Positions 10,775-40,818 of a stretch of DNA of 50,886 nt are shown here, piece after piece. Both the position numbers and the translations under genes were made by a program. This DNA comes from an uncultured Gammaproteobacteria bacterium (GTDB taxonomy: Bacteria > Patescibacteriota > Microgenomatia > UBA8517): the NCBI GenBank assembly GCA_964607795.1, contig CAZSLA010000002.1:1-50886 (forward strand), in the 5' to 3' direction. Positions within the stretch are counted from its first letter, which is position 1. The number at the start of each line of letters is the position of its first letter. A model generated the notes under the pieces. It saw nothing but the letters and a program-made list of their open reading frames with translations. It ran no database searches and had not been told where the DNA came from.

Positions 10775-11906
10775 GCTTTGAGATACTTAATAGTATACCA
10801 ACAGCAATGAGCGTCGCGGTAAGATTGCTTCCGCCATAGCTAAAAAATGGCAAGGGGATGCCCGTGATGGGCGTAAGCGCCACCATGGAGGCAAGGTTTA
10901 AAAACATTTGGATCCCGATCCACACTCCCAGACCGGTTGCTAAAACGTATGAAAAAGTGTCCGGTGCCTGCTTGGCAATCCTAAAAATGCGCATTAAAAA
11001 TATGGTTAATAAAAATACAACCACAATTGAACCGACAAATCCAACTTCTTCTCCGATAACCGCAAACACAGAATCTGTGGCCGTTTCCGGCAAAAATAAA
11101 TGCTTTTGTCGCGAATTACCAAGGCCTATACCCAAAAGCCCGCCCGAGCCCAGAGCAATTAAAATCTGGCGGATGTGATACGAGCTTCCTAAAGGATCAG
11201 CAGATGTTTGCAGATAAGTCATCAGGCGCTCACGCCTGTAATCCGAAAAAACAACAACCAAAGTAGCCAAAAAGCCCCCAAACCCGCCCATACCAACAAA
11301 ATAGATCCAGGGGGAGTCAGCCACAAAAAGCTGGGCCATGACAATGGTGACGATTACCAATGTTGTGCCAAAATCCGGCTGAAGCATGATTAAAAACACA
11401 CCAACTCCCAAATATAAAATGGGGAGCCATAGGTTGGAGCTGCGCTCTGCCCAGCGGGCGACGACCACAGCGATGGCAATTTTCAAAAGCTCCGCAGGCT
11501 GGATACCGATGGGTCCAAATCTTAGCCAACGCCTGGCGCCCAAAACGCGCGAGCCAAACCCAGGCACCAGGACAAGCACCAAAAGGATCAAAACAGCAAA
11601 AAACACCAAACCTCCGTACTTGTACCAAAATCGATACGGCAAATTGGCAATAATTATAAGCGACACCAGGCCAATTCCGGCCCACATTAGTTGCTGCTTG
11701 GCAAAGAAATAAGCATCGGAATAGACGCTAAGCGCCTGGGGCGAGGAAGAATCAGCCACGGCAACTATCCCCAATGTAGTTAAAACCAAAGTCAAAAAAA
11801 ACAAGCCCTTGTCTAGCGAGCCTTTTTTTGCGTAATCAGCTTTATTTTTTTGTCTTCTTGTTTTTTGCACATTAGATCGTGGCAAGCCACAGGCCAAATA
11901 CTGCAA
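10734..11906 (-). CDS. ftsW: SEDS-family lipid II polymerase FtsW
   Basis: 390 aa polytopic protein with LPETATDSVFA and GIPLPFFSYGGS. The ATG at 11906 overlaps mraY by 35 nt. A GTG at 11869, directly after the mraY stop, is an alternative start. Confidence 0.88.
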   Translation of the reverse strand: MQYLACGLPRSNVQKTRRQKNKADYAKKGSLDKGLFFLTLVLTTLGIVAVADSSSPQALSVYSDAYFFAKQQLMWAGIGLVSLIIIANLPYRFWYKYGGLVFFAVLILLVLVLVPGFGSRVLGARRWLRFGPIGIQPAELLKIAIAVVVARWAERSSNLWLPILYLGVGVFLIMLQPDFGTTLVIVTIVMAQLFVADSPWIYFVGMGGFGGFLATLVVVFSDYRRERLMTYLQTSADPLGSSYHIRQILIALGSGGLLGIGLGNSRQKHLFLPETATDSVFAVIGEEVGFVGSIVVVFLLTIFLMRIFRIAKQAPDTFSYVLATGLGVWIGIQMFLNLASMVALTPITGIPLPFFSYGGSNLTATLIAVGILLSISKHAEIQNPKVRKRK

Positions 11907-12918
11907 ACACTATGCCCATGAGCCAAGCCCGCATGACGATTTTGGGTTCTTCCCAGCCCAGCGCCAAAAAGGTGTGGTGGATGGGCGCCAGAGGAAAAAT
12001 TGGCCGCTTTAAGTATTTCCAGCTAAGGATTTGGATAAGGGAAGATGCAGCCTCAATAACAAAAGGTGCACCGATAATAAACAAGGCCGCCACATTTCCC
12101 AGTAAAAGTCCGATGATCGCAATCATTGCCCCAAAGCTCAGGGCTCCGGCATCCCCCAGCCAGATGCGCGCTGGCCAGACATTAAAGTATAAAAATGCCA
12201 AAAGACTCCCCAGCCAAAGGCCGATAAAAATAAACAAGGGCGTATCCAGGGCAGTCGCAGCAATAAACACATAAGCCATTAAATAAATAAGAAGAAGTCC
12301 GGAAGCAAGCCCGTCCAGGCCATCGGTGAAATTAAAAGCATTGGCGAAAAAAATAATTACAAAAGCCGAAAAAGGAATATAAAATATTCCTAAATTAAGG
12401 ACAATATCTAAAATCGGAATATACAAAATATGAATGCCCAATAAAAAGTAAAGCATGCAGGCCGAAACAAGAGACAGGACAAACTGCAGGGCAAATTTTA
12501 CTTTTTTGCTTAAGCCAAAAACTGCCCCAAGATGACCCTTTTTCGGTTTACCGAAAGTCTTAACATAATCATCCAAAAGGCCGAGAAGTCCGAAAGAAAT
12601 AAAAGTAAAAAAGATAACGCTTAGTTCGTGTCGAAGGTTATACGAACTTTCTACAAACACTCCCATGTAATCAATCAAAGGGAAGACAAAACTAAAAAGC
12701 ACACTAATGATAATTATTAGCAGTATCCCTCCGCCGATAGGAGTGCCCGCTTTTTTGTCATGCAACCTGTCAAAGAGTGTTTTTTTGCCCTTTCCGCCCT
12801 CTATCCTACGCGTCAATTTAACTTTATAAAGAAAATTTATAAAGGGCACGGTGAAGATGCTACTTATAAAAAAGGAAAATAAAATCAGCCCCAAAGCCAA
12901 AGGTAGAATATTTTGCAT
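11872..12918 (-). CDS. mraY: Phospho-N-acetylmuramoyl-pentapeptide transferase MraY
   Basis: 348 aa with the motif NAFNFTDGLDGLASG and a polytopic membrane profile. Confidence 0.96.
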   Translation of the reverse strand: MQNILPLALGLILFSFFISSIFTVPFINFLYKVKLTRRIEGGKGKKTLFDRLHDKKAGTPIGGGILLIIIISVLFSFVFPLIDYMGVFVESSYNLRHELSVIFFTFISFGLLGLLDDYVKTFGKPKKGHLGAVFGLSKKVKFALQFVLSLVSACMLYFLLGIHILYIPILDIVLNLGIFYIPFSAFVIIFFANAFNFTDGLDGLASGLLLIYLMAYVFIAATALDTPLFIFIGLWLGSLLAFLYFNVWPARIWLGDAGALSFGAMIAIIGLLLGNVAALFIIGAPFVIEAASSLIQILSWKYLKRPIFPLAPIHHTFLALGWEEPKIVMRAWLMGIVFAVFGLWLATI

Positions 12919-12963: not shown

Positions 12964-13980
12964 CTAAAGCCTTCTTACTTTTTTGCGGATTTGCTCAAAA
13001 GTATAAGTTAACCAATAGCAGTTTGATAGCTTAAGGTCATGAGCATGCATCCAGTCGATCCTTTCCCCGCCAAAACCTGTCTTAAAAACTGTTACCCCGT
13101 AAAATCTGTGCTTAGGATTATTGGTTGGAGCAATACCCCAAAAATTATAATAGGCAATTTTTCTCTGTTTTGCTTCTTTTATCGTAGCCCACTGCAAAAA
13201 ATAAGATGAGGGGATTTTGAGAAACTTTGTTGAGGAAGCGCTAAAATGGTAATAGGCGGTATCGCCATAAAAAACTATAATTGCGGTTGAAAGAATATTC
13301 CTGCCTTTTTTTACGACAAATTGCAAAGCCTGGCCGTCTTTGCCAAATGCCTGCATCTGGGCATAGAATAATTTTTTACTGAACGGGACAAATCCATGCC
13401 TTTTAGAGGTTTCCTTTTGTAATTTAGACAATAAATGCACAAATTTTATACCATCGGTTTTTTCTAGAGTCAAGCCCGCATTCAGACTGCGCTTGATAGA
13501 ATACCTGGTTTGTTTTCTCATTCCCAACAAAATTTTTTCTTCGGAAGGTGAAATATCCAAAACCCAGGTATTCTCGGCATGAAGGTGCATGGGAGAAGCT
13601 ATAAAGCCAAGTTTTCTAAACAGCTTTCTATGGCGCTCACTGGCAACAAGCTCTGGCCGTACTCTAATAAACCAGGCATTATCTTTTTTGCCATACTCCT
13701 TTAAAGTAGAAACAAATAGCCTGACAAGCGCTTTATCAGACCAGTCAATTAAAGGACCGGCCGGTACCTGGAGATACTTTCCCCTTTTTGCAGACTCGGA
13801 AATTATTAAGCACACACCAACGAGCTTCGTGTCTTTAAAAAATCCTATCCGGTAGATATTATGACCGATAAGTTTGTTGGTCTCTCCCCAGTTCCAAGAT
13901 TGTAAAAAAGAATGAGGCTTGTATTTTATAACAAAGCTTTCCCATTCAGTCTTATCTGATATTTCCCTTGCTTTATACAT
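12964..13980 (-). CDS. FemAB-family aminoacyl-tRNA-dependent peptidoglycan branch transferase (FemX-like)
   Basis: 338 aa with N-terminal HSFLQSWNWGE and C-terminal FWGIAP...GVTVFKTGFGG, typical of the FemAB/FemX family. Confidence 0.82.
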   Translation of the reverse strand: MYKAREISDKTEWESFVIKYKPHSFLQSWNWGETNKLIGHNIYRIGFFKDTKLVGVCLIISESAKRGKYLQVPAGPLIDWSDKALVRLFVSTLKEYGKKDNAWFIRVRPELVASERHRKLFRKLGFIASPMHLHAENTWVLDISPSEEKILLGMRKQTRYSIKRSLNAGLTLEKTDGIKFVHLLSKLQKETSKRHGFVPFSKKLFYAQMQAFGKDGQALQFVVKKGRNILSTAIIVFYGDTAYYHFSASSTKFLKIPSSYFLQWATIKEAKQRKIAYYNFWGIAPTNNPKHRFYGVTVFKTGFGGERIDWMHAHDLKLSNCYWLTYTFEQIRKKVRRL

Positions 13981-15202
13981 TTTCTTTTATAATTCTTGTA
14001 ACTTTATTTGCCTGCGATAAAGATAAGGTGGGGTAGGTGGGCAAATTAATAGTGGATCTGGCCAATTTTTCGGCATTAGGGCAAGATCCTGTTTTATATT
14101 TTAGTAACTTGAGGTCTTTTGCCGGGGTAACAATATGTGAATACCAATCTCCAAGCAAAACTCCTTTTTGTTTTGCCTTCTTAAAAACCAATTTACTTTT
14201 TGATAAAGAAACAGGAATTCTTAGCCACACAGGCTCACCCCTCACTTTAGGAAAAGTAATCGCATCCAAATTAATGTTATTTTTGTAATAAGCATATATT
14301 AGCTTGCGATGGTTGTTGTATTTATTTAGTTTCATTAGTTGGTGAGCCGCAAGTACCGCTAAGGCTGGAGACATTTTTTTAGGAAACGCAGCCGGTTGAC
14401 CACCGACTTTTTCTTCATCATATATCGCTTTTGTAAGTAATTTAACTTTTTGCAAAGATATCAATAGTACTTTTCCTAATCCTAAATTATAAAAAGGAAG
14501 AATTAAAAACAGAGCAATCGGATGCAATAATTGTTGGAATGTCCAATAGCGGCTTGGTTCTTCAACATTTTTTAATTCAAGTTTCACTTTTTCATAAATA
14601 GACTTTTTATTTGCTAGGATCATGCCACCAAACACTGAAGATATAATTTTGTCGCGGCCAAAACTAAAAAACGAAACATCCCCAAACGTACCCACTTTTC
14701 TATTATTCAGCTCAGCTCCAAGTGAATGGGCGCAGTCTTCAATCAGAAACAGCTTATGCTTATCTGCTATTTTTTTTATTTTTTCGATGTCCGCTGGAAT
14801 ACCAAATGTATGTTGTATTACGATTGCTTTGGTCTTTTTTGTTATCTTTTTTCCCAGGCCTTCGGGGTCCATGTTATATGAGTCGTCAATATCAATGTAT
14901 TTTGGTGTCGCGCCTAACCATAAAATGGAATTCGGAACAGACACACAAGTAAAGGCTTGCACAAGAACCTCATCCGCACATCCAATTCCCAGGGCCTTTA
15001 AAATTACATATAGAGCGCTACGTCCCGAATTCACTGAAAGCACAAAACTTTTTGTACCAAATATTTTTTTAAACTCGTGTTTGAAAGTTCGTATTTCTTT
15101 TTTATTTTTCCAGCGTCTTGGTGAAAATAGCATTCTCAAAGCAAGCCCTACATCGTCCATTTCCGTGTTGGGTGAGAGCGATATTGCTATTGGTCTAATC
15201 AT
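13973..15202 (-). CDS. DegT/DnrJ/EryC1/StrS-family PLP-dependent aminotransferase
   Basis: 409 aa with EVLVQAFTCVSVPNS, IEDCAHSLGA, and a candidate Schiff-base lysine in FSFGRDKIIS. Overlaps murF by 4 nt and femX by 8 nt. Confidence 0.82.
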   Translation of the reverse strand: MIRPIAISLSPNTEMDDVGLALRMLFSPRRWKNKKEIRTFKHEFKKIFGTKSFVLSVNSGRSALYVILKALGIGCADEVLVQAFTCVSVPNSILWLGATPKYIDIDDSYNMDPEGLGKKITKKTKAIVIQHTFGIPADIEKIKKIADKHKLFLIEDCAHSLGAELNNRKVGTFGDVSFFSFGRDKIISSVFGGMILANKKSIYEKVKLELKNVEEPSRYWTFQQLLHPIALFLILPFYNLGLGKVLLISLQKVKLLTKAIYDEEKVGGQPAAFPKKMSPALAVLAAHQLMKLNKYNNHRKLIYAYYKNNINLDAITFPKVRGEPVWLRIPVSLSKSKLVFKKAKQKGVLLGDWYSHIVTPAKDLKLLKYKTGSCPNAEKLARSTINLPTYPTLSLSQANKVTRIIKENV

Positions 15203-16767
15203 TTTAGAGTTTTTATGTAATTTATAACTTCCGAGGGTAGTCTGCCCTCCAAAAGAATAACATATTTCCCTTTTACCAAGTCATCGACCTTTGTGTTTAT
15301 TTTTTTACTGTCTTTAATTAAATAAATTTCAGCTCTCCCATTGACTCCCCTGGCAAAGGCTTTTAAGAAGGATTTATGGGTAATCACAATCTGTTCACAT
15401 ACGTCTCCGGCCAGTTTGCCTAGCTTTTTGTGAATATCAAATGCCTTGCTGCCAAGCTCAATTATACCGGTTGTAACGACTGCTCTTTTTGCACCCTTGT
15501 GACTGTAGAGATAATTTAAGGCAGATTCAAATCCCTGGGGCGTAGCATTATATGTGTCATCAATAATTACGGCACCGTTTTGAGTTTTTCTTATATTCAT
15601 GGTGTTTTCCGGTAAAGTGAGATTTTGAATGCCAGCACCAATCCTATTCCAACTCACTTTATAGTGCCGGCTAACAGCAATGGCAGCACACAAGTTCTCC
15701 AGGAAAAAATCCACTACAAATGGGGCAAAAAATTCAAACCAACCCTTACCCTCGCTAACTTTAAATTTAATACCCTCCATTGTTGTCGCTATTTTTTTCA
15801 TTTTTATGCCTGTAGAAGTTCCAGTGCCATACGTCTTGATAAGCAAATCTTTATTTAGATTTTTTGACCAAACCGCGAGTTCATGGGTGTACTTGTTGTT
15901 TGCATTCAAAAGTACCAGCGCCTTTTGTGGCAGCGATTCGATTAGCTCGAATTTTGTCTTTTTTATTTCTTCTATCCCACCAAAAAGATCAAGGTGTTGC
16001 GGTTCTATTCCTGTGATTACGGCTACTTCCGGATTGGCAATCTCTGTTATTGCACGGATTTCTCCTTTCTTATAAGCGCCCATCTCAACAACAAAGAAAT
16101 CAGCTTTTTTGTCAAACTCTTGACATATTTTTCTGATCACACCAAATACAGTGTTTTCATTTTTTCTCGTTTTTTCTACCCGATACGCCTGGCTTAACAA
16201 ATGTGCTGTAAATTCTTTAGTGGTTGTTTTGCCATAACTACCGGTAATTCCAATGACAACAGGTTTTACCTTGGATAAAATTTTTTTTGCCTCGGCGACT
16301 TCTTTGTTTTTTGCGGACAAAACCAACGGATGGGTGATCCATATTCCAATAATCGGAGCATAAACTAAAGATAATTCACCCAACAGTAACCCCAGTGTTC
16401 CGTATAAAATAAAAATTACAATTGAAAAAAATGAAAATAATAATCCTGTTGAAAGTATAATCTTTGATCTTTGAGTAAACTGCGGCCTTTTTAACTTTTT
16501 TCTATATATTCTCCAAAGAAATAATAGATCTAAATAAATAAATATAGCTGCCAAAAACGGCCAATATCCCAAAATAATTAAAAGCAGCTTAAGCAATAAA
16601 AAATGTATCCCCAGGCTTTCAAAAAGCCCATCACTCATTTTAAGAAGAACCTTAAATCTGTCAAATCTGTACTCCTTTACCTGCCACCAATAAATCCACG
16701 TCAAGCTGGAAAATAATATTTGCGGTAACCATAATAAAATAATTATGCTTTGCTGGATTTGTGCCAT
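15199..16767 (-). CDS. murF: MurF-like Mur ligase fused to an N-terminal polytopic membrane domain
   Basis: 522 aa. Residues ~1-150 form 4-5 hydrophobic helices. They are followed by the Mur ligase P-loop GITGSYGKTTTKE, EMGAYKKGEI, and ITGIEPQHLD. The usual soluble N-terminal UDP-binding domain appears absent. Confidence 0.8.
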   Translation of the reverse strand: MAQIQQSIIILLWLPQILFSSLTWIYWWQVKEYRFDRFKVLLKMSDGLFESLGIHFLLLKLLLIILGYWPFLAAIFIYLDLLFLWRIYRKKLKRPQFTQRSKIILSTGLLFSFFSIVIFILYGTLGLLLGELSLVYAPIIGIWITHPLVLSAKNKEVAEAKKILSKVKPVVIGITGSYGKTTTKEFTAHLLSQAYRVEKTRKNENTVFGVIRKICQEFDKKADFFVVEMGAYKKGEIRAITEIANPEVAVITGIEPQHLDLFGGIEEIKKTKFELIESLPQKALVLLNANNKYTHELAVWSKNLNKDLLIKTYGTGTSTGIKMKKIATTMEGIKFKVSEGKGWFEFFAPFVVDFFLENLCAAIAVSRHYKVSWNRIGAGIQNLTLPENTMNIRKTQNGAVIIDDTYNATPQGFESALNYLYSHKGAKRAVVTTGIIELGSKAFDIHKKLGKLAGDVCEQIVITHKSFLKAFARGVNGRAEIYLIKDSKKINTKVDDLVKGKYVILLEGRLPSEVINYIKTLK

Positions 16768-17471
16768 GCTTCAATTTTCCCGGCCACTTCTTTGGGTTTT
16801 TTATATGGCAATTTGTGATCTTCATTGAGAAAAATGTAAATTGTTGCTTGCTTGATATTTTCTTCTAAGTAAAGAGCATCTTTGAGAGGAGTTGCTTTAT
16901 CCAGTTTTCCCCACACAATCAATGTGGGCATTGCTATTTGTTTTACTACTTTTTTGAGATCCTGTTTGATAACTCTTCTCATAATAAGCCGCATTTTAGA
17001 ACTCGACTTTTCGTAATCAAGTTCTTTGGAGGCTTTGTAAAGAAACCTTTGCCATACCTTGGCCAGAGTGGGAGCTAAATTTAATACTTTTCCCACTTTT
17101 GCCAAAAGCAAAAAGAAAATTCGTTTTGAAAGCCTAGCGCGCGATATGCCCGCGGCAGCGCATAAAATAACCCCGGCTATTCTATCTTTATTAGTAGCCG
17201 CCAGTTTAATTGCCAGCCTGCCGCCAAACGAATGGCCAAAAACAAAGAACTTTTTTCCTTTAAATTTTTTGAGCGACCTAGAATAAATATATTCCGAATA
17301 TTCGTCCACTCCCCAAATACCAACCGGCTCAGGAGCTCCAAAGCCCGGGATTTCGGGTAAAAATACTTCCCAACCTAAATTGCCAAGTTCTTTGGCAAGT
17401 GGTTTTAGCTTATTAGTATCTGCCCCCCACCCATGCAAAAGAACAATAAACTTAGCTTCTTTAGAAATCAT
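16743..17471 (-). CDS. Alpha/beta-fold hydrolase
   Basis: 242 aa with LLHGWG and the nucleophile elbow GHSFGG. A late His lies in EDHKLPY. Confidence 0.8.
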   Translation of the reverse strand: MISKEAKFIVLLHGWGADTNKLKPLAKELGNLGWEVFLPEIPGFGAPEPVGIWGVDEYSEYIYSRSLKKFKGKKFFVFGHSFGGRLAIKLAATNKDRIAGVILCAAAGISRARLSKRIFFLLLAKVGKVLNLAPTLAKVWQRFLYKASKELDYEKSSSKMRLIMRRVIKQDLKKVVKQIAMPTLIVWGKLDKATPLKDALYLEENIKQATIYIFLNEDHKLPYKKPKEVAGKIEAWHKSSKA

Positions 17472-17516
17472 CTCTGTTTAAATTATAACCACTATATTTG
17501 GTCTAACAAACCCCAA

Positions 17517-17853
17517 GTGATATTATACAGTATAAAGAAATTCAAGGGCAGTTCCAGCGTTACCATAGCATTGAGCTACATGGGGGCAGTAATAGGCGCG
17601 GGCTTTATTTCTGGGCAAGAACTTGCACAATTTTTTTACGATTTGGTTTAAGTGGATTTCTGTCATGGATCGTAGTGGGTATATGTACTGTAGCAGGTGG
17701 GTATTATGGAATTGTAGCGATAGCAAAAAAAAGATACATTCATTTAACGAATTAACTAGACCAATTTTTGGCCCCAAACTATCTCCCTTTGTGAATATTG
17801 TCTCATTGGGCTATTTGATTGGAGGTTTAATAATAATGATATCCGGAAGCGGC
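17517..17853 (+). pseudogene. 5' fragment of a YkvI-like membrane protein gene, with two frameshifts, then truncated
   Basis: Three frames join into VILYSIKKFKGSSSVTIALSYMGAVIGAGFISGQELAQFF / LRFGLSGFLSWIVVGICTVAGGYYGIVAIAKK / IHSFNELTRPIFGPKLSPFVNIVSLGYLIGGLIIMISGSG. The GAGFxSGQExxQFF motif is characteristic of YkvI. The frame changes fall at a T7 run (~17634-17640) and an A8 run (~17724-17731). Only ~110 of the expected ~350 codons are present. Confidence 0.6.
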
Positions 17854-18590
17854 TGTTCAGTTGGTGAAGTTTCATATGGCCCATTTCCAATAAGGGAAAT
17901 GTTCACCTCTATAAAATCTTTTGCCGATTCTTCTATTAATACTTTCGTATCATAAAAATAAGCTAATTCCAAAGCTTCTTTGAGCTCTATCTTATTATTA
18001 GCCATTGATATTCCTATTGAAGAACCCAGTCTAGCCGGTTTTATGTAAACCGGATATTTAAAATTTATAGGCAACTTCTGCCCTTTATCTAAAATAATAT
18101 GTTTTAAAACAGGAATTCCGGCATATTGTGCTACACTTTTCGACAAGGCTTTATCCACACCTATCGCTGAAGAATCTACCCCACAACCTATATAGGGTAC
18201 ATTTGCCGATTCCAATACTCCTTGAATAGAACCGTCCTCCCCATTTCGGCCGTGCAAGCAAGGAAAGGCGATGTCAAAATTTAATTTTCGATGAGTCTTA
18301 ACAAAAGAAAAATTTTCAGGTATTTCTTGTAAATAGAAATTTTTTACTTGTCCGCTTGGTAAAAACATCTTTGGTTTATTGTAAATTGCTTTTTCTTGAT
18401 CGGAAAAGGTTTTGGTGTCTAGAAAACTATCGTCGCCCGAAAACCACTGTCCTTCTTTGTTTATATAAATAGGTAGTATTTCATGTCTTGCGCCTTTTAA
18501 GGCGTGCATAAGTTGTATTGCCGTTATGATCGATACTTCATGTTCTGGAGATTTACCGCCAAATAACACCGCCACGGATTTTGTATGCAT
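17811..18590 (-). pseudogene. ddl: D-alanine--D-alanine ligase, truncated at the 3' end
   Basis: The N-terminal and central domains are intact (VAVLFGGKSPEHEVS, HGRNGEDGSIQG, VYIKPARLGSSIG). Similarity stops at ...LIGNGPYETSPTEQP (~17850). The last ~12 codons are the reverse complement of the ykvI-like fragment. About 100 C-terminal residues, including the Mg/ATP-binding residues, are missing. Confidence 0.72.
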
Positions 18591-18704
18591 AAATATATTT
18601 TATAACAAACAGTTGATATAATACATCATATTAAGGAAATTAAAAAAATATTCGATATCACAAGAGAGGGCAGGCTTGGCAAAGAGATAAAGCGTCAAAT
18701 ACGT

Positions 18705-19706
18705 ATGAGCGTTGCTGCTCCAAAAGAAAAAAGGATCCATCTTGATCCAACCGAACTCACGGAAGTATCTAAAAAAATAATAGAAATCGAAACCCCCGCA
18801 CAACCAAAACAAGTAGCGTTCGATGGGAATACTGGACTTGCATATGTACCATGCATGAGAGGTTACACGCTTGCGATTTTCGGACTTTCAAACCACAAGC
18901 TTGAGAGAATCCGAGAAGTTAGGTTTCAAGATCAGTGTGTGGAGGTCGCAGTTGGAAAGGAGCACGTTTACGTCACAACTAGCAATTTTGACCGACCGCC
19001 CCATGAGCTGCTTAACAAACTTTGGATACTGAATAAGTCAGGTCAAAAGGTGGGTTGTGTTAACATCGAGGGTAATTGGAGCAAAGTCGTTGCACTAGAC
19101 CAAAACGAAGAACTAGCTGCTGTAAGTAATTGGTACAGTCATGATATCAGTTTTATAGACATATCAGATAAACGCAACCCCAGACTAATTCAGAGGGTTA
19201 AATTTGGCGAAGCTCCAAGAGGACTTCTTTTTTTACCAAATGGTGGTCTAATGGTTTCCGGATTCTATTCCGCGAATATCGGCATACTAAAAAGGAATAA
19301 TTCAGGCTGGGAAGTCACTTATATTAGCAATGAATTTGATAGAGCGAAATATCAAGGCAATATGAGGCATTTAGTTCTAGCCCCAGACCAAAAAAACGCA
19401 CTAGTTACAAATCTTGGAAGAAATATGGTTCATATTTGGTCAGTTCAGAAGCAAGACTTTGTTGATCAAATCCTGGTTGGACTTGAACCAAATACAGTTG
19501 ATTTTATAAATGGCAACATAGCTGCCATTTCTTGTCGCAAATCTAATCTTATTTATTATTTAGATTATCCCAACCGAAAGGTTGTTGGGGTTTCTGAACC
19601 TACTGGAAACTTGCCGACTGGACTTTGCTGGGCCGGAGAGAACAAATGCCTTGTTACGAGCTTTGAGAGTAACAAGCTAGAACTTTACCAATTAAATGAT
19701 GGGTAA
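18705..19706 (+). CDS. Cytoplasmic 7-bladed beta-propeller protein (YVTN / lactonase-type repeats)
   Basis: 333 aa with no signal peptide. There are about seven ~45-aa repeats ending in hydrophobic strands (LAYVPC, HVYVTTSN, LAAVSNW, LMVSGFY, ALVTNLG, IAAISC, CLVTSFE), with G..P.G turns as in YncE/Pgl-like propellers. Confidence 0.6.
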   Translation: MSVAAPKEKRIHLDPTELTEVSKKIIEIETPAQPKQVAFDGNTGLAYVPCMRGYTLAIFGLSNHKLERIREVRFQDQCVEVAVGKEHVYVTTSNFDRPPHELLNKLWILNKSGQKVGCVNIEGNWSKVVALDQNEELAAVSNWYSHDISFIDISDKRNPRLIQRVKFGEAPRGLLFLPNGGLMVSGFYSANIGILKRNNSGWEVTYISNEFDRAKYQGNMRHLVLAPDQKNALVTNLGRNMVHIWSVQKQDFVDQILVGLEPNTVDFINGNIAAISCRKSNLIYYLDYPNRKVVGVSEPTGNLPTGLCWAGENKCLVTSFESNKLELYQLNDG

Positions 19707-20350
19707 ATATTAATTCCTGTTAACTGCAACTTACCTTTTGTATCCATAAGTAATACACTTACAGAACCATTCGGTATCGAAAAATATCTTCGATTGTCAA
19801 ACGAGCTCTGTAGTGCCTCAAGAATAACCATTTTTATAATATCGACATGCGTAATTGCAAATACTAAACGATTATCCAAATTTTTAAATCGTTGCAGAAC
19901 GCTCAATACTCTTTGTCTAACCTCCTCATATGACTCTCCATCTGGAAACCTAAATTTGCTAGGATTATACATCCAATCATCTACCATTTCGCCGTACTTT
20001 CCCCTTAGTTCATTACCCCTTTTTCCGCTGAATTCACCCATATCAGTTTCGATTAATTGTGGTAGCTCCATAATTTGCGGCTTATTATATTTAAATTGTT
20101 GACTGATAAGTTCTGCTGTTTGTTTGCATCTTATTAACGGACTTGTAAACATAGCTATACCAGATTCTTCAGATTCTGAGAAAATGTCATGCATGGACGA
20201 TATTCTCTGTACGAAATCATCAACCTGCTGATCTCTAACTATTTCAGCGTCGATTACTCTTCCCATGATGACTCCGTTGCGATTATTTTCGGTTGCCAGA
20301 TGTCTTATGAAAACCAGCTTACGTTCAGTGCTCATCAAACACCCTTTCAA
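19685..20350 (-). CDS. Histidine phosphatase superfamily protein (phosphoglycerate-mutase-like branch)
   Basis: 221 aa with the RHG-type motif FIRHLATENN, TSPLIRCKQTA, PDGESYEEV, and a second catalytic His in AITHVDIIK. Confidence 0.85.
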   Translation of the reverse strand: MKGCLMSTERKLVFIRHLATENNRNGVIMGRVIDAEIVRDQQVDDFVQRISSMHDIFSESEESGIAMFTSPLIRCKQTAELISQQFKYNKPQIMELPQLIETDMGEFSGKRGNELRGKYGEMVDDWMYNPSKFRFPDGESYEEVRQRVLSVLQRFKNLDNRLVFAITHVDIIKMVILEALQSSFDNRRYFSIPNGSVSVLLMDTKGKLQLTGINIYPSFNW

Positions 20351-20957
20351 TGATCAATTGAGCGTTTATCTCCGGAGGTGTGTTTCCATCCATCTTAAGA
20401 TAATCCGCTCTATTAAAAGAACCGAAGCTTTCAAACCTGCCTATAAACTCTACAAAAGTAAATGGGCTTGGGCCATGCCCGCCATTTTCAATTCTACGGG
20501 AAACTCTAGCATAAGCAATCTGAGGATTAACACTCACTTCAACGATTGAAATAGCTAAACAAATCGAATTAGTTCGACCTATTTCTTCAATCTTGTTCAA
20601 AGTATGCTCTAATCCTTCAGTATTACTAAAAGGCTGGTTCCATATTACACACTTGCCATTGCGAATCGCTGTTTTAAACTGGTCTAACATAAACCGATAT
20701 GGGTAGAATTTAGAGTCGAGGTCAGTGCATTCAATCCTAGTTTTTTCAACAAAATCAGAATAATCTCTCCCCTCGTAATCTATGTCATCTGGGTCAATAA
20801 TTGCACACGAAGCTTGTCCAATCCTTTTCACGATTTCTCCAGAAACAGTGGATTTTCCAGAACCAGGTATTCCCCGTATTAATATTACCCTAACTGTTTC
20901 TTGCGGCTTTTCTCTAATTTCAAGTTTATTTAAGTCAAATCTTTCAGGGTTTGACAT
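20325..20957 (-). CDS. P-loop kinase-like NTPase (AAA_33 / Zeta / PNK / gluconokinase-type fold); substrate unknown
   Basis: 210 aa with Walker A GIPGSGKST, followed ~20 aa later by a hydrophobic strand ending in Asp (CAIIDPDD). Overlaps the downstream phosphatase gene by 26 nt. Confidence 0.72.
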   Translation of the reverse strand: MSNPERFDLNKLEIREKPQETVRVILIRGIPGSGKSTVSGEIVKRIGQASCAIIDPDDIDYEGRDYSDFVEKTRIECTDLDSKFYPYRFMLDQFKTAIRNGKCVIWNQPFSNTEGLEHTLNKIEEIGRTNSICLAISIVEVSVNPQIAYARVSRRIENGGHGPSPFTFVEFIGRFESFGSFNRADYLKMDGNTPPEINAQLIIERVFDEH

Positions 20958-20985
20958 TTGACGATATATACTTCGATGTTATAAT
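20958..20985 (+). promoter_or_regulatory. Sigma-70-type promoter that would give a leaderless or near-leaderless transcript for the small ORF
   Basis: TTGACG (20958-20963), a 16-nt spacer, then TATAAT (20980-20985). The ATG at 20993 lies 7 nt after the -10. The element abuts the kinase start codon (20957). Confidence 0.4.
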
Positions 20986-20992
20986 AACACAA

Positions 20993-21265
20993 ATGTCACC
21001 TGAAAATAAATCCGAACGGACTGAAGTGTTGAGTATCGGAAATTCAGAAAAAGTAATTTTAGATCCTTCAGGAGGCAGTATATTCACCCGCAAGTTAATA
21101 TTTGGAAGACCGGACCTGCTTGAACAGTGTCCACGCGAAGTTCAAGAAAGTATCAGACTTATGCATCATGCAATAACACTGCAATCCAAAGGTTGCCATG
21201 AGAAGGGTAGGGAATATCTACAAATGACTTTTGAATCACTTGATAGACCGAAAATATTAGATTGA
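20993..21265 (+). CDS. Small hypothetical protein (90 aa from the ATG at 20993)
   Basis: Open frame divergent from the kinase gene. The ORF track starts at a TTG (20951), but an ATG lies at 20993 just downstream of a promoter-like element. I recognise no motif. Confidence 0.4.
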   Translation: MSPENKSERTEVLSIGNSEKVILDPSGGSIFTRKLIFGRPDLLEQCPREVQESIRLMHHAITLQSKGCHEKGREYLQMTFESLDRPKILD

Positions 21266-22253
21266 TTTTCCAATTTTGTGCACTCTTCCTACAAGGGCTT
21301 CATTTACGGCTTTTTTATCGGACCATTCATGTTCAACTCCATCAATATTCATTCCCTCTTCATGGCCTTTTCCACAAATTAAAACAGTAGATCCCGTTTC
21401 TGCTAAATAATTAATTGCAAAGTAAACTGCCATTCCTCTGTCTGGAATATTATGGATCTTGTAGAAATGATTTGGATTTACTCCTTCCTTTACCACTATA
21501 TTACTTGCCTTAAAATGAGAATCCTGCTTCAACGAATAAGAAACTAATACATTATTAAGATTTGACCTGATCTTTTTCGTCTTTGTCCGCCACCGCAGTC
21601 TCTGCTTCATTCAAGAAAGACGTCTTTGCTTGGCGATATTGTTCAAAACTCTTATGATAATCGAGATGTTCGGGAGTAATATTGGTAATCGCAGAAACCT
21701 CAAAGCTTAAACCATACACCCGAGCCTGATCTATAGCCTGAGACGATATTTCAATAATACAATGAGAACAATTAGCTTAAACCATTGCATACAAAAGCAT
21801 CTGTAATTCTAAAGGTTCAGGGGCAGTTGTATGCAAACCAGTTTTAATTACTTTTTTATTTATTTTTGCAGAAGTAGTAGAAATTAGGCCAACCTTTACA
21901 CCTGATCTTATGAGCAAGTGATGAATCATATTAGAAACAGTTGTTTTCCCATCAGTCCCAGTTACTCCAATTAAACTCATTTTGTCAGCCGGATTATCAA
22001 ACCAGTTTGCTGCAATAAGCGAAAGAGCTTTTCTTGAATCTTTCACCTTAATATAAGTAACCTCCCTAAGCCAATTTGGTTGTGGATCTTTTTCGCCGAT
22101 AATTACGATTGCACCCTTGGAAATAACCTTGTCAACATAATCGTGGGCATCGCTTCTTAACCCCTGTATAGCCACAAACAATGAGTTCTTGTTAACCTTT
22201 CTTGAATCATCAATTACAGCACCAATATCAGGATTTGAAGAGCAAAACCTCAT
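21257..22253 (-). pseudogene. murE: Decayed UDP-N-acetylmuramoyl-tripeptide synthetase gene (murE)
   Basis: MurE similarity is split across the locus. The N-terminal part runs ...DDSRKV...GVTGTDGKTT...LHTTAPEPLELQ... to an in-frame TAA at 21777-21779. The same frame continues ANCSHCIIEISSQAIDQARV...ITNITPEHLDYHKSFEQYRQAK. A frameshift near 21566-21575 follows, then VLVSYSLKQDSHFKASNI. The sequence then jumps directly to the C-terminal IPDRGMAVYFAI...LICGKGHEE. About 170 codons are missing, including the DYAHTPD and DNPR regions. Confidence 0.8.
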
Positions 22254-22294
22254 ATGATCGACACTGTTAAGTAAATCACTGAGCTTTTAATTCA

Positions 22295-22441
22295 TATTTC
22301 TCTTATGACTGCGCCTAACTTTTCTAGGTTTTCTGCAAAGTGTGAGTGTCTGCGGTAAAGCGCATCTGCGTTATTGACAGTAGAATTACCCTCAGCAACC
22401 ACAGTATATATCATTATCGTCTCAACTTCAGCGTCAGTAAA
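22295..22441 (-). pseudogene. murA: Relic of the 3' end of a murA-like (enolpyruvyl transferase) gene
   Basis: 49 codons with no start: FTDAEVETIMIYTVVAEGNSTVNNADALYRRHSHFAENLEKLGAVIREI*. They align without gaps to the MurA C-terminus pattern TDLRA....L.LA.L.AEG.S.V.....L.RGY..F..KL..LGA.I.R. The relic begins directly after the ftsI stop, in the ftsI frame. Confidence 0.55.
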
Positions 22442-24166
22442 TTAATCAGGCTGGATCCCCAAGTATGTGAATAAATCACGGGCGATATTAAACCAAAGTG
22501 GCGCAGCGGTTTCGCTGGCCCAGGGGGAGCTTTGGGGCTCCCTCAGGGTCACAAGCATAATAAACTTGGGATTCTCAGGCGGGGCAAATCCCACAAAGCT
22601 GGCAATGGTTTTATCTGCATCATAGTGGCCGGCCACTGGTATTTGCGCTGTACCCGTTTTACCGGCAATTTTAAATCCTTTGGGTATGGCCCATTTAGCC
22701 TCACCCTGGGAGGCGGCGAGCACCATCATCTCGGTCATTTGGCGTGCGGCCTTCTGACTAATCACGCGCGTACCCTCGCTCGGGGGAATGTCTTCTTCCC
22801 AGCCATCGATTTTCAGCTTATCCACCACCTGAGGAGTAATCTTTACACCCCCGCGGGCAATGGTATTAATCATGGAAACCATCTGAATGGGTGTAACCGC
22901 AATCCCCTGGCCAAAAGTGGAAGTGACCACGTCTACATCGCCCCAGTCACGATCGGCTCGCAAAGGCGGCTTGGCCTCGCCCTGAAGGTCAATGCCCGTT
23001 GCCTCACCCAGGCCAAACTTTTTAAGGTATTCAATGACGCGCTCTTTGCCCAATTTCTGCCCCACGTATGACATACCCACATTATCCGAGTGCATAATAA
23101 CCTCGGCCATGGTTGTGTCCTCGTAATATTTATTGTCCCAGGTCCTGATCTGGTACCTGCCAATGGTCAAAGGTCCGGCGCACATATCGCACTTTGTGTC
23201 CGGCTCCACCGCCCCGGCATCAAGTGCCGAGGCCATGATAACGGGCTTAAACACCGAGCCCGGCTCAAAGGCATCGGAGATGACGGGATTTTTAAAAAGT
23301 TCGTTTGTAAAATCCGCATAATGCATCGGGTCAAAAGTAGGCTCGACCGCCATGGCCAGGACAGCACCGTCTTGGGGCCGCATAACCACGACTGAGCCTT
23401 GCGTCGCTTTATAAAGCTCTATGCCAGCCTTTAATTTTTGCTCGACCAAAATCTGAATAGTTTTGTCAATGTGGGTCACCAAATCAACGCCGCGGGAAGC
23501 TCCTTTTTCGCGCGAGAGTCCCCCGATCAACGGCACACCCAAGGCGTTGGACTCGCGCTCCAAAAATCCGGGCCGCCCTGCAAGCGTCAAATTATAATAA
23601 CCTTCCAGGCCAAAATAGCCTTTACTCTCACCCTGATCATCCTTGCCCACAAAGCCTAAAAGATGAGCACTTGAGCTTCCTTCCGGATAAACCCTACTTT
23701 CCTGAAGCTCAAAGCCTATGCCAGGAAGCTTCATAGCCTCAATGTTTTGCTTTTTATCTCGGGTTATTTCATTTTTCAAAGCCACCCAAGCGCCGTCGCG
23801 ACCCAAAAGTCCTTCTAAACGCATCGCCTCATCCAAAAGCAATTTGTATGGATCTTCTTCATTTTTAGGCTCATCCACAAGGACCGGTGCTAATTTATTA
23901 GCTAGGGTTTTGGGGTCGTATTTAATTTCCGGCAGGGACGCATACACCCGCCACGCATCCACGCTAGAAACCATCCAGGTGCCATCCGCAGCCAGGATGC
24001 TGCCCCTTTGAGCTTCTATTTTTTGGTTAGTTATCTGCTGGGCGCGGGCTTGCCTGGTTAGTTCGCCGGTTTTCATTATCTGCCAATAAAACAGCCGGCC
24101 AATAATCGAGGCCGAGGCAAGCAAAAAAAAGGTGCTGATTAAGCGCAGTCTGAGCCTTCTGGTCAT
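22442..24166 (-). CDS. ftsI: Class B penicillin-binding protein / peptidoglycan D,D-transpeptidase FtsI
   Basis: 574 aa with an N-terminal TM helix, SxxK (SVFKP), SxN (SDN) and KTG (KTGT) motifs. Sits in the dcw position after ftsL. Confidence 0.92.
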   Translation of the reverse strand: MTRRLRLRLISTFFLLASASIIGRLFYWQIMKTGELTRQARAQQITNQKIEAQRGSILAADGTWMVSSVDAWRVYASLPEIKYDPKTLANKLAPVLVDEPKNEEDPYKLLLDEAMRLEGLLGRDGAWVALKNEITRDKKQNIEAMKLPGIGFELQESRVYPEGSSSAHLLGFVGKDDQGESKGYFGLEGYYNLTLAGRPGFLERESNALGVPLIGGLSREKGASRGVDLVTHIDKTIQILVEQKLKAGIELYKATQGSVVVMRPQDGAVLAMAVEPTFDPMHYADFTNELFKNPVISDAFEPGSVFKPVIMASALDAGAVEPDTKCDMCAGPLTIGRYQIRTWDNKYYEDTTMAEVIMHSDNVGMSYVGQKLGKERVIEYLKKFGLGEATGIDLQGEAKPPLRADRDWGDVDVVTSTFGQGIAVTPIQMVSMINTIARGGVKITPQVVDKLKIDGWEEDIPPSEGTRVISQKAARQMTEMMVLAASQGEAKWAIPKGFKIAGKTGTAQIPVAGHYDADKTIASFVGFAPPENPKFIMLVTLREPQSSPWASETAAPLWFNIARDLFTYLGIQPD

Positions 24167-24469
24167 CTAAGGAAGTTGGGCAACGGATCTACTGAGCGTG
24201 CTGGCAATTTCTCCCAGATAATAAATTTCGCTTGGCTTTACCATGCCGAGTTTCTCGGCTTTTGCGTTGATGTGGTTGAGGGCGGTTTGCTCAATCATCT
24301 GGCTCATAATTTGTCTGTTTTCTGCCTCAACAAGGCTAATTTGTTTTTCAATTTGCATAAGCTTGCTGCCAAGTGACACTATCTGAATACTCACCATCAC
24401 GATTGCCATGACCATGAAAATAATTCCGGCTAAGGGGAATGTCAATTGTTTACTGATTCTGCTTTTCAT
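24167..24469 (-). CDS. ftsL: FtsL-like cell division protein
   Basis: 100 aa with a single TM helix followed by a heptad-like segment (LMQIEKQISLVEAENRQIMSQ). Conserved position between rsmH and ftsI. Confidence 0.7.
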   Translation of the reverse strand: MKSRISKQLTFPLAGIIFMVMAIVMVSIQIVSLGSKLMQIEKQISLVEAENRQIMSQMIEQTALNHINAKAEKLGMVKPSEIYYLGEIASTLSRSVAQLP

Positions 24470-24472
24470 TTA

Positions 24473-25369
24473 TTAGCTAAACTCCTTTTCAAAGATGCGC
24501 AGGCTTGCGCTTCTGGCGCGCGGATTAGCCGTGCGCTCATCCAAACCGGGTTTGATCGGGCCTTGAGTACGCCCCCAACCAAGCTTTTTCCAGGACTTAA
24601 ACTTATTTTTAACAACCCTGTCTTCACCTGAATGAAAACTTATAACCGCAAGCTTTCCCTTGGGCATTAAAAGCTCATATGCCCGCTCCAAAGCAAGAGT
24701 TAAATTCTCAAGCTCGCAATTGACGATTATACGCAGAGCCATCATGGCTCTGGTGGCCGGATGAATCTTGCCCGGCCTCCCTTTACCAAAAAGCGTAAGC
24801 AGGTCCCCCACCCGGAAAAATTTTTGCTCCTGCCTTTGGCTGATTACTTTTTCGGCCAGGATTTTGGCACTTTTATAGGGCATGCTAATCAAGAACATGT
24901 CCACAAGCTGCTCAAATCTTAAGATATTCAGAAGATCTGCTGCTTTGACTTCCTGCCTGCTCTGATCCAAGCGCATGTCCAAAGGCGCATCCGGGTCTTT
25001 GAAAGAAAAACCCCGCAAGTCCTGATCCAAGTGATAACTGGAAATACCTAAATCAAAAAGAATTCCCTTGACCGGCGAAAAGCTATGCTCTTGGGCAATT
25101 TTTTTTATGTCTACAAAATTAGCGTGCACCAGAATACTTTCTGTGCCAAAGCTGGGACTTTCTTGTTTAAGTCTTTCTTGGGCTAAAGCATACATTTTTG
25201 GATCCGTTTCCAAAGCAAGTACCGTCGCTCCTTGGCGCAAAAACTCCAGAGTGTGGCCGCCGGCGCCCAAAGTGGCGTCAATAATTTTAGCTTCAGGTGT
25301 AATGTGCAATGCCTCCAAAACCTCGCTCACAAGCACTGGCAGATGGCTACTAGTCAGATCTTTGTTCAC
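24473..25369 (-). CDS. rsmH: 16S rRNA (cytosine1402-N4)-methyltransferase RsmH/MraW
   Basis: 298 aa with HLPVLVSEVLEAL, DATLGAGGHT, DLGISSYHLD and SFHSGEDRVVK. Confidence 0.95.
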   Translation of the reverse strand: MNKDLTSSHLPVLVSEVLEALHITPEAKIIDATLGAGGHTLEFLRQGATVLALETDPKMYALAQERLKQESPSFGTESILVHANFVDIKKIAQEHSFSPVKGILFDLGISSYHLDQDLRGFSFKDPDAPLDMRLDQSRQEVKAADLLNILRFEQLVDMFLISMPYKSAKILAEKVISQRQEQKFFRVGDLLTLFGKGRPGKIHPATRAMMALRIIVNCELENLTLALERAYELLMPKGKLAVISFHSGEDRVVKNKFKSWKKLGWGRTQGPIKPGLDERTANPRARSASLRIFEKEFS

Positions 25370-25790
25370 TTGCTATTTTCTCCAGCATTTGGGCCGCATT
25401 TTGAGCTACGTAGGCTTCGCGTTTTTGCCAGGCTCCCTTATCCCATATTTCTATTCTGTCCCCGAGCCCTATAAACACCACCTCGTGGGTGAGCCCCGCA
25501 AACTCCACCAGACTTTCAGGCAAAAGCATGCGCCCTTGTGCATCCGTTTCCAGCTCATAAGCCGAGCCCAAAATAAACCGGTCCGTATCCCGAACTGGCG
25601 CGGTCAGGATGCTACTTTTCCCCGTTAGTCTACTCACAAGCTCATTCCATTTATCCTGACCTATAAGTACCAGACAGTTCTCATACCAACGAGCGACAAT
25701 AAATTTGTCTCCTATTTCGCGGCGAAAGGCTTTGGGAATAGCAATCCGCCTGTTTTCTGTTAGTTTGGATGCAAAGTTGCCAATTACCAT
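25350..25790 (-). CDS. mraZ: Transcriptional regulator MraZ
   Basis: 146 aa with duplicated SpoVT/AbrB-like halves. The first has a degenerate motif (ENRRIAIP) and the second the typical DxxGR motif (DAQGRMLLP). First gene of the dcw cluster. Confidence 0.94.
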   Translation of the reverse strand: MVIGNFASKLTENRRIAIPKAFRREIGDKFIVARWYENCLVLIGQDKWNELVSRLTGKSSILTAPVRDTDRFILGSAYELETDAQGRMLLPESLVEFAGLTHEVVFIGLGDRIEIWDKGAWQKREAYVAQNAAQMLEKIASEQRSD

Positions 25791-26619: not shown

Positions 26620-27999
26620 TTAACTTTCTTTATTCTTCAGATAATCAAAGATTTTGTCAATAGCGACCCGCGTTTGGACCTTGCTGTCACGTTCGCGGAT
26701 GGTAACACTGTCGTCCACAAGCGTGTCAAAATCAATGGTTACGGAGTAGGGCGTGCCGATTTCGTCCTGCGAAGCATAACGCTTGCCAATATTGCCACGG
26801 CTATCCCAGGCAGTGGTGTAGCGGGTACGAAGTATATCAAACACACTTTGCGCCATGACCACAAGCTTGGGCTTATTGGCCAAAAGCGGAAATACGGCCA
26901 GGAAATAAGGCGCAAGCGCGGGCTTGATTTGCAAGGTCACTCTACCATCCCCCTCATGATATCCGTCCAGTAAAACTGCAAGCATACTTCTGTCCATGCC
27001 AAAAGTAGGCTCAATAACGTGGGGAATAAACTTTTTTCCGTCCGTAGGGTCGGTATAGCGCAGGTCCACCCCAGACTTTTCTATGTGATTTCTCAGATCA
27101 TAATCCCCGCGGTATGCCAAGCCATAAAGTTCTTTAAATCCAAAAGGAAAATTATATTCAATATCTTTGGTTAAGCTTGAATAATGCGAGCGCTCCTCGT
27201 CTGTGTGCGTGCGCCAGCGCAGATTCTCTGGCCGCAAACCCAGGACCTCGGTGCTCCACGCCCACATGGTTTTTTCCCACATTTGGTAAAGCTCCTGCCA
27301 ATTGCTTACCTCGGGATTAAAAAAATACTCAAACTCAGCCAAATTAAACTGTAAGGTTCTGTGGATAAATTTACCCGGGGTAATTTCGTTTCTAAAAGCC
27401 ACGCCGCTTTGAGCCAGGCCAAAAGGCAATTTAGGAGCAAGAGTATCAAGAACGTTTTTGAAATTGACAAACATGCCCTGGGCAATTTCGCCGCGCAAAT
27501 AAGTCAAGGACTTTTCGCCGGCAAGGATGCCGATGTGGGTTTCAAACAAGTTGTTGAATTTTCTAGGCTTGGTCCAGTTAAATTTGCCGCACTTGGGGCA
27601 AGGAATTTTATTTTTCTCAATTTTTTCCTCTAGATCACGCGTACATAAGCCCTCGACTTTTAGATCTTTTCCTTTGCTGGCAAAATAATCTTCAATCAAA
27701 TGATCCGCGCGTGTTCTGAATTGGCAATTTTTGCAATCAATCAAAACATCGGCAAAGTTTGCTACATGACCCGACGCCTCCCAAATAGCGGGGTTCATAA
27801 GGACGCTTGTATCCAGGCCGAACATGTCGGGGCGCTTGGTAACAAAAAAATTCCACCAGGCATTTTTGATGTTGCGCATTAGTTCCACTCCCATGGGACC
27901 GTAGTCATAAGTGTTGGCCAGCCCGCCATAAATCTCCGACCCGGGATAGACAAAGCCGCGTCTTTTAGCCAAACTGACCACTTTTTCCATCAAATCCAT
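26620..27999 (-). CDS. glyQS: Glycine--tRNA ligase (homodimeric alpha2 type)
   Basis: 459 aa starting with RRGFVYPGSEIYGGLANTYDYGPMGVELMRNIK, followed by FRNEITPG and FGMDR. Characteristic of GlyQS. Confidence 0.95.
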   Translation of the reverse strand: MDLMEKVVSLAKRRGFVYPGSEIYGGLANTYDYGPMGVELMRNIKNAWWNFFVTKRPDMFGLDTSVLMNPAIWEASGHVANFADVLIDCKNCQFRTRADHLIEDYFASKGKDLKVEGLCTRDLEEKIEKNKIPCPKCGKFNWTKPRKFNNLFETHIGILAGEKSLTYLRGEIAQGMFVNFKNVLDTLAPKLPFGLAQSGVAFRNEITPGKFIHRTLQFNLAEFEYFFNPEVSNWQELYQMWEKTMWAWSTEVLGLRPENLRWRTHTDEERSHYSSLTKDIEYNFPFGFKELYGLAYRGDYDLRNHIEKSGVDLRYTDPTDGKKFIPHVIEPTFGMDRSMLAVLLDGYHEGDGRVTLQIKPALAPYFLAVFPLLANKPKLVVMAQSVFDILRTRYTTAWDSRGNIGKRYASQDEIGTPYSVTIDFDTLVDDSVTIRERDSKVQTRVAIDKIFDYLKNKES

Positions 28000-31366: not shown

Positions 31367-31372
31367 ACTTGG

Positions 31373-40815: not shown

Positions 40816-40818
40816 AAA

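Follow-up and report, generated by a model that had tools for sequence, protein, structure and literature searches.

In obligate intracellular bacteria with reduced peptidoglycan (PG), class A penicillin-binding proteins (PBPs) are lost, whilst murA to murG, mraY, at least one SEDS gene and at least one class B PBP are kept (Otten et al. 2018, PMC5814848). We examined a 50.9-kb stretch of DNA (hereafter the window, to which all our statements on gene presence and absence, salvage genes and class A PBPs included, apply) that carries a division and cell wall (dcw) cluster, in which murA, murE and ddl are broken between ftsI and mraY. Like the intracellular bacteria, the window has a partial PG gene set with at least one SEDS gene (here two) and a class B PBP; it also has mraY and murG, and no class A PBP was found in its 50.9 kb. 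Unlike in those bacteria, the early cytoplasmic steps are broken and the late ones kept at this locus, which would be the reverse pattern, seen at one locus only. The nearest precedent known to us for missing cytoplasmic steps would be nested insect symbioses, such as that of Moranella in mealybugs, in which host-encoded genes supply the missing cytoplasmic Mur enzymes whilst the later steps are kept. There complementation takes place inside a host cell, whereas the window comes from an environmental member of the candidate phyla radiation (CPR). The named homologues of its genes belong to Woesebacteria, Collierbacteria and the “Patescibacteria group”, which marks the source organism as an uncultured, ultra-small bacterium of the Microgenomates type within the CPR, i.e., a Woesebacteria-like Patescibacterium.

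The canonical dcw cluster of Patescibacteria, as seen in the locus L004 and in the JGI loci L141, L146 and L163, has the same backbone as the window, running from mraZ-rsmH-ftsL-ftsI to mraY-ftsW-murG-ftsQ-ftsA-ftsZ-ileS. The difference lies in between, where the window has gene stumps, a trio of unrelated genes and another murF cassette in place of the murA-murB-murE::murC-murD-ddl-murF segment. Every type of lesion that we found, as well as the relaxed constraint on murE and its deletion polymorphism, has its likeness in the ordinary bacterial pseudogenes that arise by such mutations during genome reduction or in the wake of recombination; what sets the window apart from these is that normally essential genes of a conserved operon are targeted, whilst the other members of the operon are constrained.

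Dead murA, murE and ddl genes in a natural population

At this locus murA, murE and ddl are dead, and the damage, which is of recent date, is concentrated in a recombined segment with low GC content at third codon positions (GC3). An earlier note on this DNA had described, within 5 kb, a murA relic, a decayed murE and a truncated ddl, and we recovered all three, on the minus strand, in the interval under study (17472-22441). The murA relic (22292-22441, minus strand) begins right after the ftsI stop codon, consists of the final 49 codons plus the stop codon, and matches the C-terminus of MurA. When it was compared with PDB sequences using phmmer, eight of the nine matches were MurA proteins aligned C-terminus to C-terminus over ~40 residues (best E 0.002), and it is 50–61% identical to the last 36–44 residues of the murA genes that sit after ftsI in seven relatives (L090, L145, L147, L141, L154, L103 and L163; E 3e-12 to 4e-10, with a small database). 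The L090-type gene is a bona fide MurA (NF006873, 346 bits), and the similarity of the relic to these orthologues is about the same as that of the intact FtsI to the FtsI of such relatives. By alignment, ~385 codons, comprising the 5' portion of murA, are deleted. Two types of MurA, which are 28% identical and both match the MurA model, occur in the clade (L090:8696-9970 and L004:3393-4691). The alignments place the origin of the relic in the L090 type and not in the type of the closest relative, L004.

The murE pseudogene (21257-22253, minus strand) is spread over three open reading frames (ORFs) with fragments of the Pfam Mur_ligase and Mur_ligase_M domains. It carries a nonsense codon, TAA, at 21777-21779 (Lys in L004), a frameshift at ~21560-21600 (as judged from a three-frame reading), and an in-frame deletion of ~435 bp (~145 codons) relative to strain L005, with a sharp breakpoint near 21486-21495. 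The deletion takes out the last part of the middle domain and the bulk of the C-terminal one; the GKGHE motif at the C-terminus is still there, and tblastn matches to the MurE of L004 and L006 cover residues 2-240 and 351/382-455 only. An alternative genetic code was considered and rejected, the nonsense codon being TAA and TGA ending five of 20 genes as an ordinary stop. Strain L005, at 99.87% identity, still has the undeleted 3' half and reads through it in an open frame of 223 codons that runs to the end of its contig. The deletion of 435 bp is thus a strain polymorphism, and the decay of murE is recent and ongoing. For a conservation count we reconstructed murE from the 5' part of the window and the 3' part of L005. 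In the reconstructed gene 62 of 67 near-invariant residues are conserved, the P-loop and GKGHE among them, and its five deviations compare with a maximum of three in 86 homologues, an excess which argues that some relaxation of constraint preceded the breaks. The best identity of the window's murE to anything in 5.8 billion proteins is 47–50%, compared with 79% between the MurE of L004 and that of L006. Two further observations concern MurE architecture in relatives. Many Woesebacteria-type MurE proteins are ~750 aa long with an extra NTP_transferase/MobA-like domain (e.g., P0127, P0132, P0136, P0154 and P0157), which resembles a fusion with a sugar-1-phosphate nucleotidyltransferase and might provide a MurU-like salvage step in those lineages, and in L004 (L004:5754-8534) MurE and MurC are fused into one protein of 926 aa, in which both sets of Mur ligase domains are complete.

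The truncated ddl (17811-18590, minus strand) encodes 259 aa, compared with 384–386 aa in relatives. Genuine Ddl sequence runs to codon 246 and is followed by 13 unrelated codons and a TAG; residues 247-384, including the conserved C-terminal half of the ATP-grasp domain, are missing, and in Pfam terms Dala_Dala_lig_N is complete and Dala_Dala_lig_C is represented by positions 19-103 of 204 only. Up to the break the stump matches every invariant column in an alignment with nine full-length relatives. Its nucleotide homology to L004 (82.7%) spans exactly 18603-17847 with sharp ends on both sides, and its third-position identity to L004 is 65% vs. 41–50% for the core genes. The corresponding dN of 0.109 and dS of 0.81 give a ratio of 0.135, which fits a break of very recent date. 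No 3' remnant of ddl was found downstream, where relaxed tblastn over 17400-17900 gave nothing significant, nor were remnants of a native murF or abhydrolase gene found in that range. A scan of GTDB genomes with the Ddl alignment gave 43% as the best identity among the matches listed. The junction DNA between the stump and the next gene, which encodes an alpha/beta hydrolase (abhydrolase), occupies 17472-17810. A short plus-strand ORF (17623-17955) opposite the 3' junction of ddl has a weak Aa_trans match, to the N-terminal part of such transporters (E 3.7e-4, below the gathering score), and may be a fragment of an amino-acid-transporter gene at the recombination joint.

The lesions were then compared, at the level of assemblies, with Logan assemblies of independent sequencing runs, seven of which reproduce them at 99.9–100% identity. 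Those of murE recur in L087 (SRR15734599; window 22702-20743, one SNP at window 22130, no gap), L172 (SRR15734603; window 22851-21371, one mismatch, no gap), L088 (SRR15734601; window 21864-20154, 100%) and L089 (SRR15734598; window 21662-20201, 100%), and L087 and L172 each span the end of ftsI, the murA relic and the murE lesions. The ddl truncation is present at 100% identity in L001 (SRR15734603), L002 (SRR15734602) and L003 (SRR30949874), and also in L005 (SRR22315506), which is 99.87% identical over 7136 nt with nine single-nucleotide polymorphisms (SNPs) and no gaps. Because independent assemblies of seven runs carry the same joins, nonsense codon and frameshift, the lesions are not artefacts; they are genuine and occur in a natural population that persists. 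Exact look-ups of FtsI and of the 158-aa murE ORF returned no record (other samples carry a K42E SNP in the latter), and a literature search on the run accessions found nothing.

Constraint and patchwork structure across the dcw cluster

The genes for the lipid-linked and periplasmic steps are intact on both sides of the damage. Upstream lie ftsL (24167-24469) and ftsI (22442-24166, minus strand), a class B PBP with the Pfam domains PBP_dimer and Transpeptidase and with SxxK, SxN and KTG in its translation. Downstream, mraY (11872-12918), ftsW (10734-11906), murG (9647-10774) and ftsQ (8976-9650) form a contiguous block (8976-12918), followed by ftsA (7694-8971) and ftsZ (6455-7630), all on the minus strand and all recognised by Pfam/NCBIfam, and a second, rodA-like SEDS gene stands at 1440-2510 (minus strand; Pfam FTSW_RODA_SPOVE, E 3.5e-76). 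The earlier note had listed these genes, plus a murF-like gene and femX, as full length, and had reported murC, murD and murB missing from their usual slots; both statements agree with our scans, in which full ORFs with family matches were obtained for the former, whilst no murB, murC or murD, and no second murA, murE or ddl, was found anywhere in the window.

The note had further proposed that dN/dS of the intact dcw genes be estimated and sister genomes compared. A ratio was obtained for the ddl stump (the 0.135 given above); for the intact genes dS against L004 was saturated, and relative distances to the outgroup L006 and counts at near-invariant columns were used instead. At such columns MraY and FtsW have no deviation and MurG has one, which is at or below the median of their relatives, and FtsI has seven deviations at 231 columns (median of relatives: eight). 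The distances of MraY, FtsW, MurG and FtsI to L006 equal those of L004, the proteins of the mraY-to-ftsZ block are 66–90% identical to L004 and FtsI is 80% identical, and the strain SNPs in flanking genes comprise 14 synonymous and five non-synonymous changes. By these measures MraY, FtsW, MurG and FtsI give no sign of relaxed constraint, which bears out the contrast that the note had drawn between damaged cytoplasmic precursor genes and intact lipid-linked and periplasmic ones. The three broken genes all belong to the cytoplasmic class (hypergeometric P ~0.02–0.05, depending on how FemX is counted), an estimate that is confounded by their physical adjacency and by possible regional rearrangement.

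As for the sister genomes, the closest relative found, L004, whose core proteins are 66–90% identical to those of the window, has intact murA-murB-murE::murC-murD-ddl after ftsI in the same interval, followed by murF and the abhydrolase gene on the other strand and then by mraY. In L006, the Ddl of which is 58% identical, the order is ftsI-His_Phos-murE-two unknowns-ddl-(murF, abhydrolase)-mraY, and no murA, murB, murC or murD is present in its cluster. A scan of JGI metagenomes with the MraY of the window retrieved 80 loci at 61–75% identity, 38 of which were long enough for the content of the ftsI-mraY interval to be read. Many hold a full set, typically murA-murE-murC-murB-murD-ddl-murF; others hold only murA (L090, L145 and L147), murE-murF-ddl (L106 and L107) or only murF (L092), and in L118, L127, L132 and L155 the interval is empty, with ftsI directly followed by mraY. 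In other Microgenomates-type CPR genomes ddl, murF, the abhydrolase gene, murD and murC stand together, far from mraY. Since the interval content among the 38 relatives ranges from the full set to nothing, the absence of murB, murC and murD from their usual slot, which is common in the clade, is weak evidence of loss. Two cell-wall genes of relatives are themselves interrupted: murG of L006 is split by a frameshift in an A-run (L006:15412-16538), and ftsW of L094 is in two pieces. These breaks are due either to sequencing errors or to a wider decay of cell-wall genes in the clade.

Between the ddl junction and mraY lies a cassette of four intact minus-strand genes (12964-17471), all assigned by Pfam/NCBIfam: the abhydrolase (16743-17471), a MurF-like ligase with a hydrophobic N-terminus (15199-16767), a DegT-type aminotransferase (13973-15202) and a FemAB-family transferase (FemX, 12964-13980). 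The best NCBIfam match of the MurF-like ligase is TIGR01143 murF at 229 bits, below the cut-off of 288.6, and Mur_ligase_M and C are present. In place of the canonical N-terminal domain it has a hydrophobic region, probably a multi-pass membrane segment, an architecture common to L142, L169 and L124. The MurF-like ligase and the abhydrolase are ~30% identical to their counterparts in L004 and L006, and the same four-gene cassette stands upstream of mraY in L142 and L169 (36–56% identical), with its last three genes in L124 and a partial version in L150. On these comparisons the cassette matches that of more distant relatives and is of foreign type.

Composition and strain variation set the same region apart. 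GC3 is 0.29-0.39 from 22441 to 12964 (murA relic to FemX), compared with 0.56 in ftsI and 0.44-0.54 from mraY onward. In L004 GC3 is low (0.28-0.41) throughout, which is why the core genes of the window lineage seem to be the ones that shifted, towards higher GC3. The ftsI-mraY interval (~9.5 kb) thus reads as a low-GC3 patchwork of differently related pieces. Against strain L005, the stretch 14351-18035 has no SNP, whereas the rate in the flanks (19 per 9942 nt) predicts ~7 (P ~0.001), a pattern which suggests that the cassette and the ddl break spread together very recently. Five of the nine SNPs that separate the window from L005 are clustered in 366 nt of the ddl stump (18036-18402), and this cluster, taken with the SNP desert beside it, suggests recent recombination tracts or a sweep. 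The pairing of an abhydrolase with a MurF-like ligase, usually beside ddl, was also seen in the distant CPR lineages Daviesbacteria, Doudnabacteria and Woesebacteria as well as in the clade of the window (L004:11152-13250, L006:11158-13253, L040:7789-9958, L041:7862-9956, L042:11182-12887, L054:10485-12291 and window 15199-17471), and looks like a conserved three-gene module of abhydrolase, MurF-like ligase and ddl, in which the hydrolase is the member to which no part in PG synthesis is assigned.

Possible sources of the missing activities

The lesions at the locus are confirmed, whilst a loss of the pathway for the whole cell is unproven. The explanation that we tentatively put first, with somewhat less than even confidence, is a rebuilt segment with the precursor genes elsewhere. 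Several events of recombination and deletion would recently have reshaped the cytoplasmic segment of the cluster, from ftsI to mraY, and would have left behind a murA stump, a murE that accumulates lesions, three unrelated genes, a ddl stump and the foreign-type abhydrolase-murF-DegT-FemX cassette. The broken genes would then be the debris of redundant or overwritten copies and not a sign of pathway loss. Lipid II is probably still being made, given the conservation of the MurF-like ligase, FemX, MraY, MurG, FtsW and FtsI and the apparent recent sweep of the cassette. MurF needs UDP-N-acetylmuramic acid (UDP-MurNAc)-tripeptide and D-Ala-D-Ala, and FemX needs the finished pentapeptide precursor; from the substrate needs of MurF we infer that the activities of MurA to MurE and Ddl must exist. 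We give close to an even chance that these come from copies elsewhere in the genome, which would probably be distant xenologues. Such copies are plausible given that the dcw clusters of many relatives are without the genes in question and that separate ddl/murF/murD/murC clusters occur in other CPR, and they are favoured over true loss or a wall-less state by the intact MurF-like ligase and FemX, which use the products of the broken steps. If copies elsewhere exist, the locus would be a population-verified example of a dcw cluster that is cut and re-pasted freely in Patescibacteria, and an empty usual slot or a pseudogene in the cluster would not imply loss of the pathway in such genomes.

Several points weigh against this explanation. 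A second copy of any of the six genes was not seen in the window, and CPR genomes are small and rarely have duplicate pathways. No full-length relative with more than 47% identity to murE was found among 5.8 billion proteins, and the same collection holds no Ddl between 58% and 82% identity to that of the window and, above 82%, the truncated form only; a closely related second ddl in the species is therefore unlikely, and any replacement would be a distant xenologue. In addition, selection seems to have acted on the remnants until recently, in which case the redundancy would also have to be recent, or the remnants would have been imported already broken.

The foremost rival, to which we assign a clearly lower probability than to copies elsewhere and which we regard as unlikely, is a true and recent loss of de novo UDP-MurNAc-pentapeptide synthesis. 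MurA, MurE and Ddl (plus MurB, MurC and MurD) would be lost with no other copies in the genome, the lipid II machinery from MurF to FtsI would be kept, and precursors or muropeptides would come from a host, the environment or an unrecognised route. The pattern of the damage speaks for it, as only cytoplasmic steps are hit, MraY, MurG, FtsW and FtsI are fully conserved, and L004 has intact genes exactly where the debris lies; so does the lack of a closely related second ddl or murE among the 5.8 billion proteins, a collection that contains this population. Patescibacteria are, moreover, widely inferred to be epibionts with minimal biosynthesis. The intact MurF-like ligase, however, would be superfluous if finished pentapeptide were imported, and the genes that would point to salvage are missing from the window, no mpl, amgK, murU or ampG-like match having been obtained by Pfam/NCBIfam among its main ORFs. 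We know of no transporter for nucleotide-linked precursors. The kinase inserted beside the murE pseudogene is of a generic P-loop type that has no connection with MurNAc salvage, and the evidence is confined to 50.9 kb of the genome. A true loss would be the reverse of the reduction seen in intracellular bacteria, caught whilst still polymorphic in nature; with no other copies, lipid II would be assembled without synthesis of its nucleotide precursors, which would point to a transfer of precursors between epibiont and host and offer a datable snapshot of the loss.

A little less probable still is a very recent collapse of the pathway in a lineage that is heading towards a wall-less state, the downstream genes being intact for want of time. 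All lesions are young, as this explanation would have it, the decay of murE segregates between strains that differ by 0.13%, and the frameshifted murG of L006 and the split ftsW of L094 would fit a wider decay. Time alone is hard to reconcile with ~8.7 kb of downstream PG genes that have no lesion when murE has three. The truncated-ddl genotype, furthermore, persists across three accession series in strains 0.13–0.19% apart, and the SNP-free cassette looks as though cell-wall genes had recently been swept, which one would not expect of a cell that can do without its wall.

That the fragments still work, i.e., that a split MurE is assembled from its pieces or that the N-terminal two-thirds of Ddl have a new role, is very improbable. 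The ddl stump is well conserved and keeps an open frame of 259 aa, which speaks for it, but it has lost the C-terminal half of the ATP-grasp domain together with its conserved columns and holds five of the nine strain SNPs, and murE is without the ~145 codons that encode the end of its middle domain and most of its C-terminal domain. Assembly or sequencing artefacts (chimeric joins or homopolymer errors), which the earlier note had kept as an alternative and which single-contig metagenome data can contain, the A-run frameshift in murG of L006 being a possible case, are refuted to the point of having almost no probability left by the gap-free recurrence of the joins, the nonsense codon and the frameshift in the seven runs, and recoding is excluded with them, TAA being the nonsense codon and TGA an ordinary stop.

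Inserted genes and other features of the window

Between murE and ddl three unrelated genes are inserted; their products are a P-loop kinase, a histidine phosphatase and a beta-propeller protein, the last encoded on the opposite strand. The kinase gene (20325-20957, minus strand; Pfam AAA_33/Zeta_toxin-like) is absent from the corresponding position in all relatives examined, and its family is rare, with 167 representatives at E<=1e-3 among 1.84 billion proteins. A PDB sequence search with the kinase gave no match. Its AlphaFold2 model (pLDDT 94) retrieved with Foldseek only generic small-molecule P-loop kinases at TM-scores of 0.5-0.6 (gluconate kinase, deoxynucleoside kinases, PSTK, the PFK-2 kinase domain and zeta). 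We considered an identity as a Zeta/PezT toxin (a UDP-GlcNAc 3'-kinase) and rejected it: the match to Zeta_toxin in Pfam (E 1e-8) does not surpass that to the generic AAA_33, zeta toxins rank 21st and 42nd in Foldseek, after generic kinases, and the adjoining gene encodes a histidine phosphatase and not an epsilon antitoxin.

The histidine phosphatase gene (19685-20350, minus strand; Pfam His_Phos_1, E 5e-30), the NCBIfam matches of which are all below cut-off, overlaps the kinase gene by 26 nt. A kinase and a phosphatase of these kinds (19685-20957) are the domain pair of 6-phosphofructo-2-kinase/fructose-2,6-bisphosphatase. The His_Phos_1 gene that L006 has between ftsI and murE is 30% identical to the phosphatase of the window. 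The beta-propeller gene (18705-19706, plus strand) has weak Pfam and NCBIfam beta-propeller matches only, and no counterpart was found at the interval in the relatives examined. A search for signatures of mobile elements around the insert returned short repeats of chance quality only, with no transposon-like repeats at its borders.

Elsewhere in the window, ileS (2507-5347) lies between the rodA-like gene and ftsZ, and rsmH (24473-25369), mraZ (25350-25790) and hisS (26620-27999) lie beyond ftsL; nearly all genes of the window are on the minus strand. The remainder of the window is largely taken up by a surface-glycan/glycosyltransferase locus of ~20 kb (30725-50672), just upstream of which a DUF4012 protein is encoded at 28616-30673. 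The locus includes a Bac_transf initiating transferase, a mannose-1-phosphate guanylyltransferase-like gene and at least ten glycosyltransferases (GT1/GT2/GT4), together with three PMT_2-type proteins, a Wzy_C ligase/polymerase, a hexapeptide acyltransferase and a methyltransferase.

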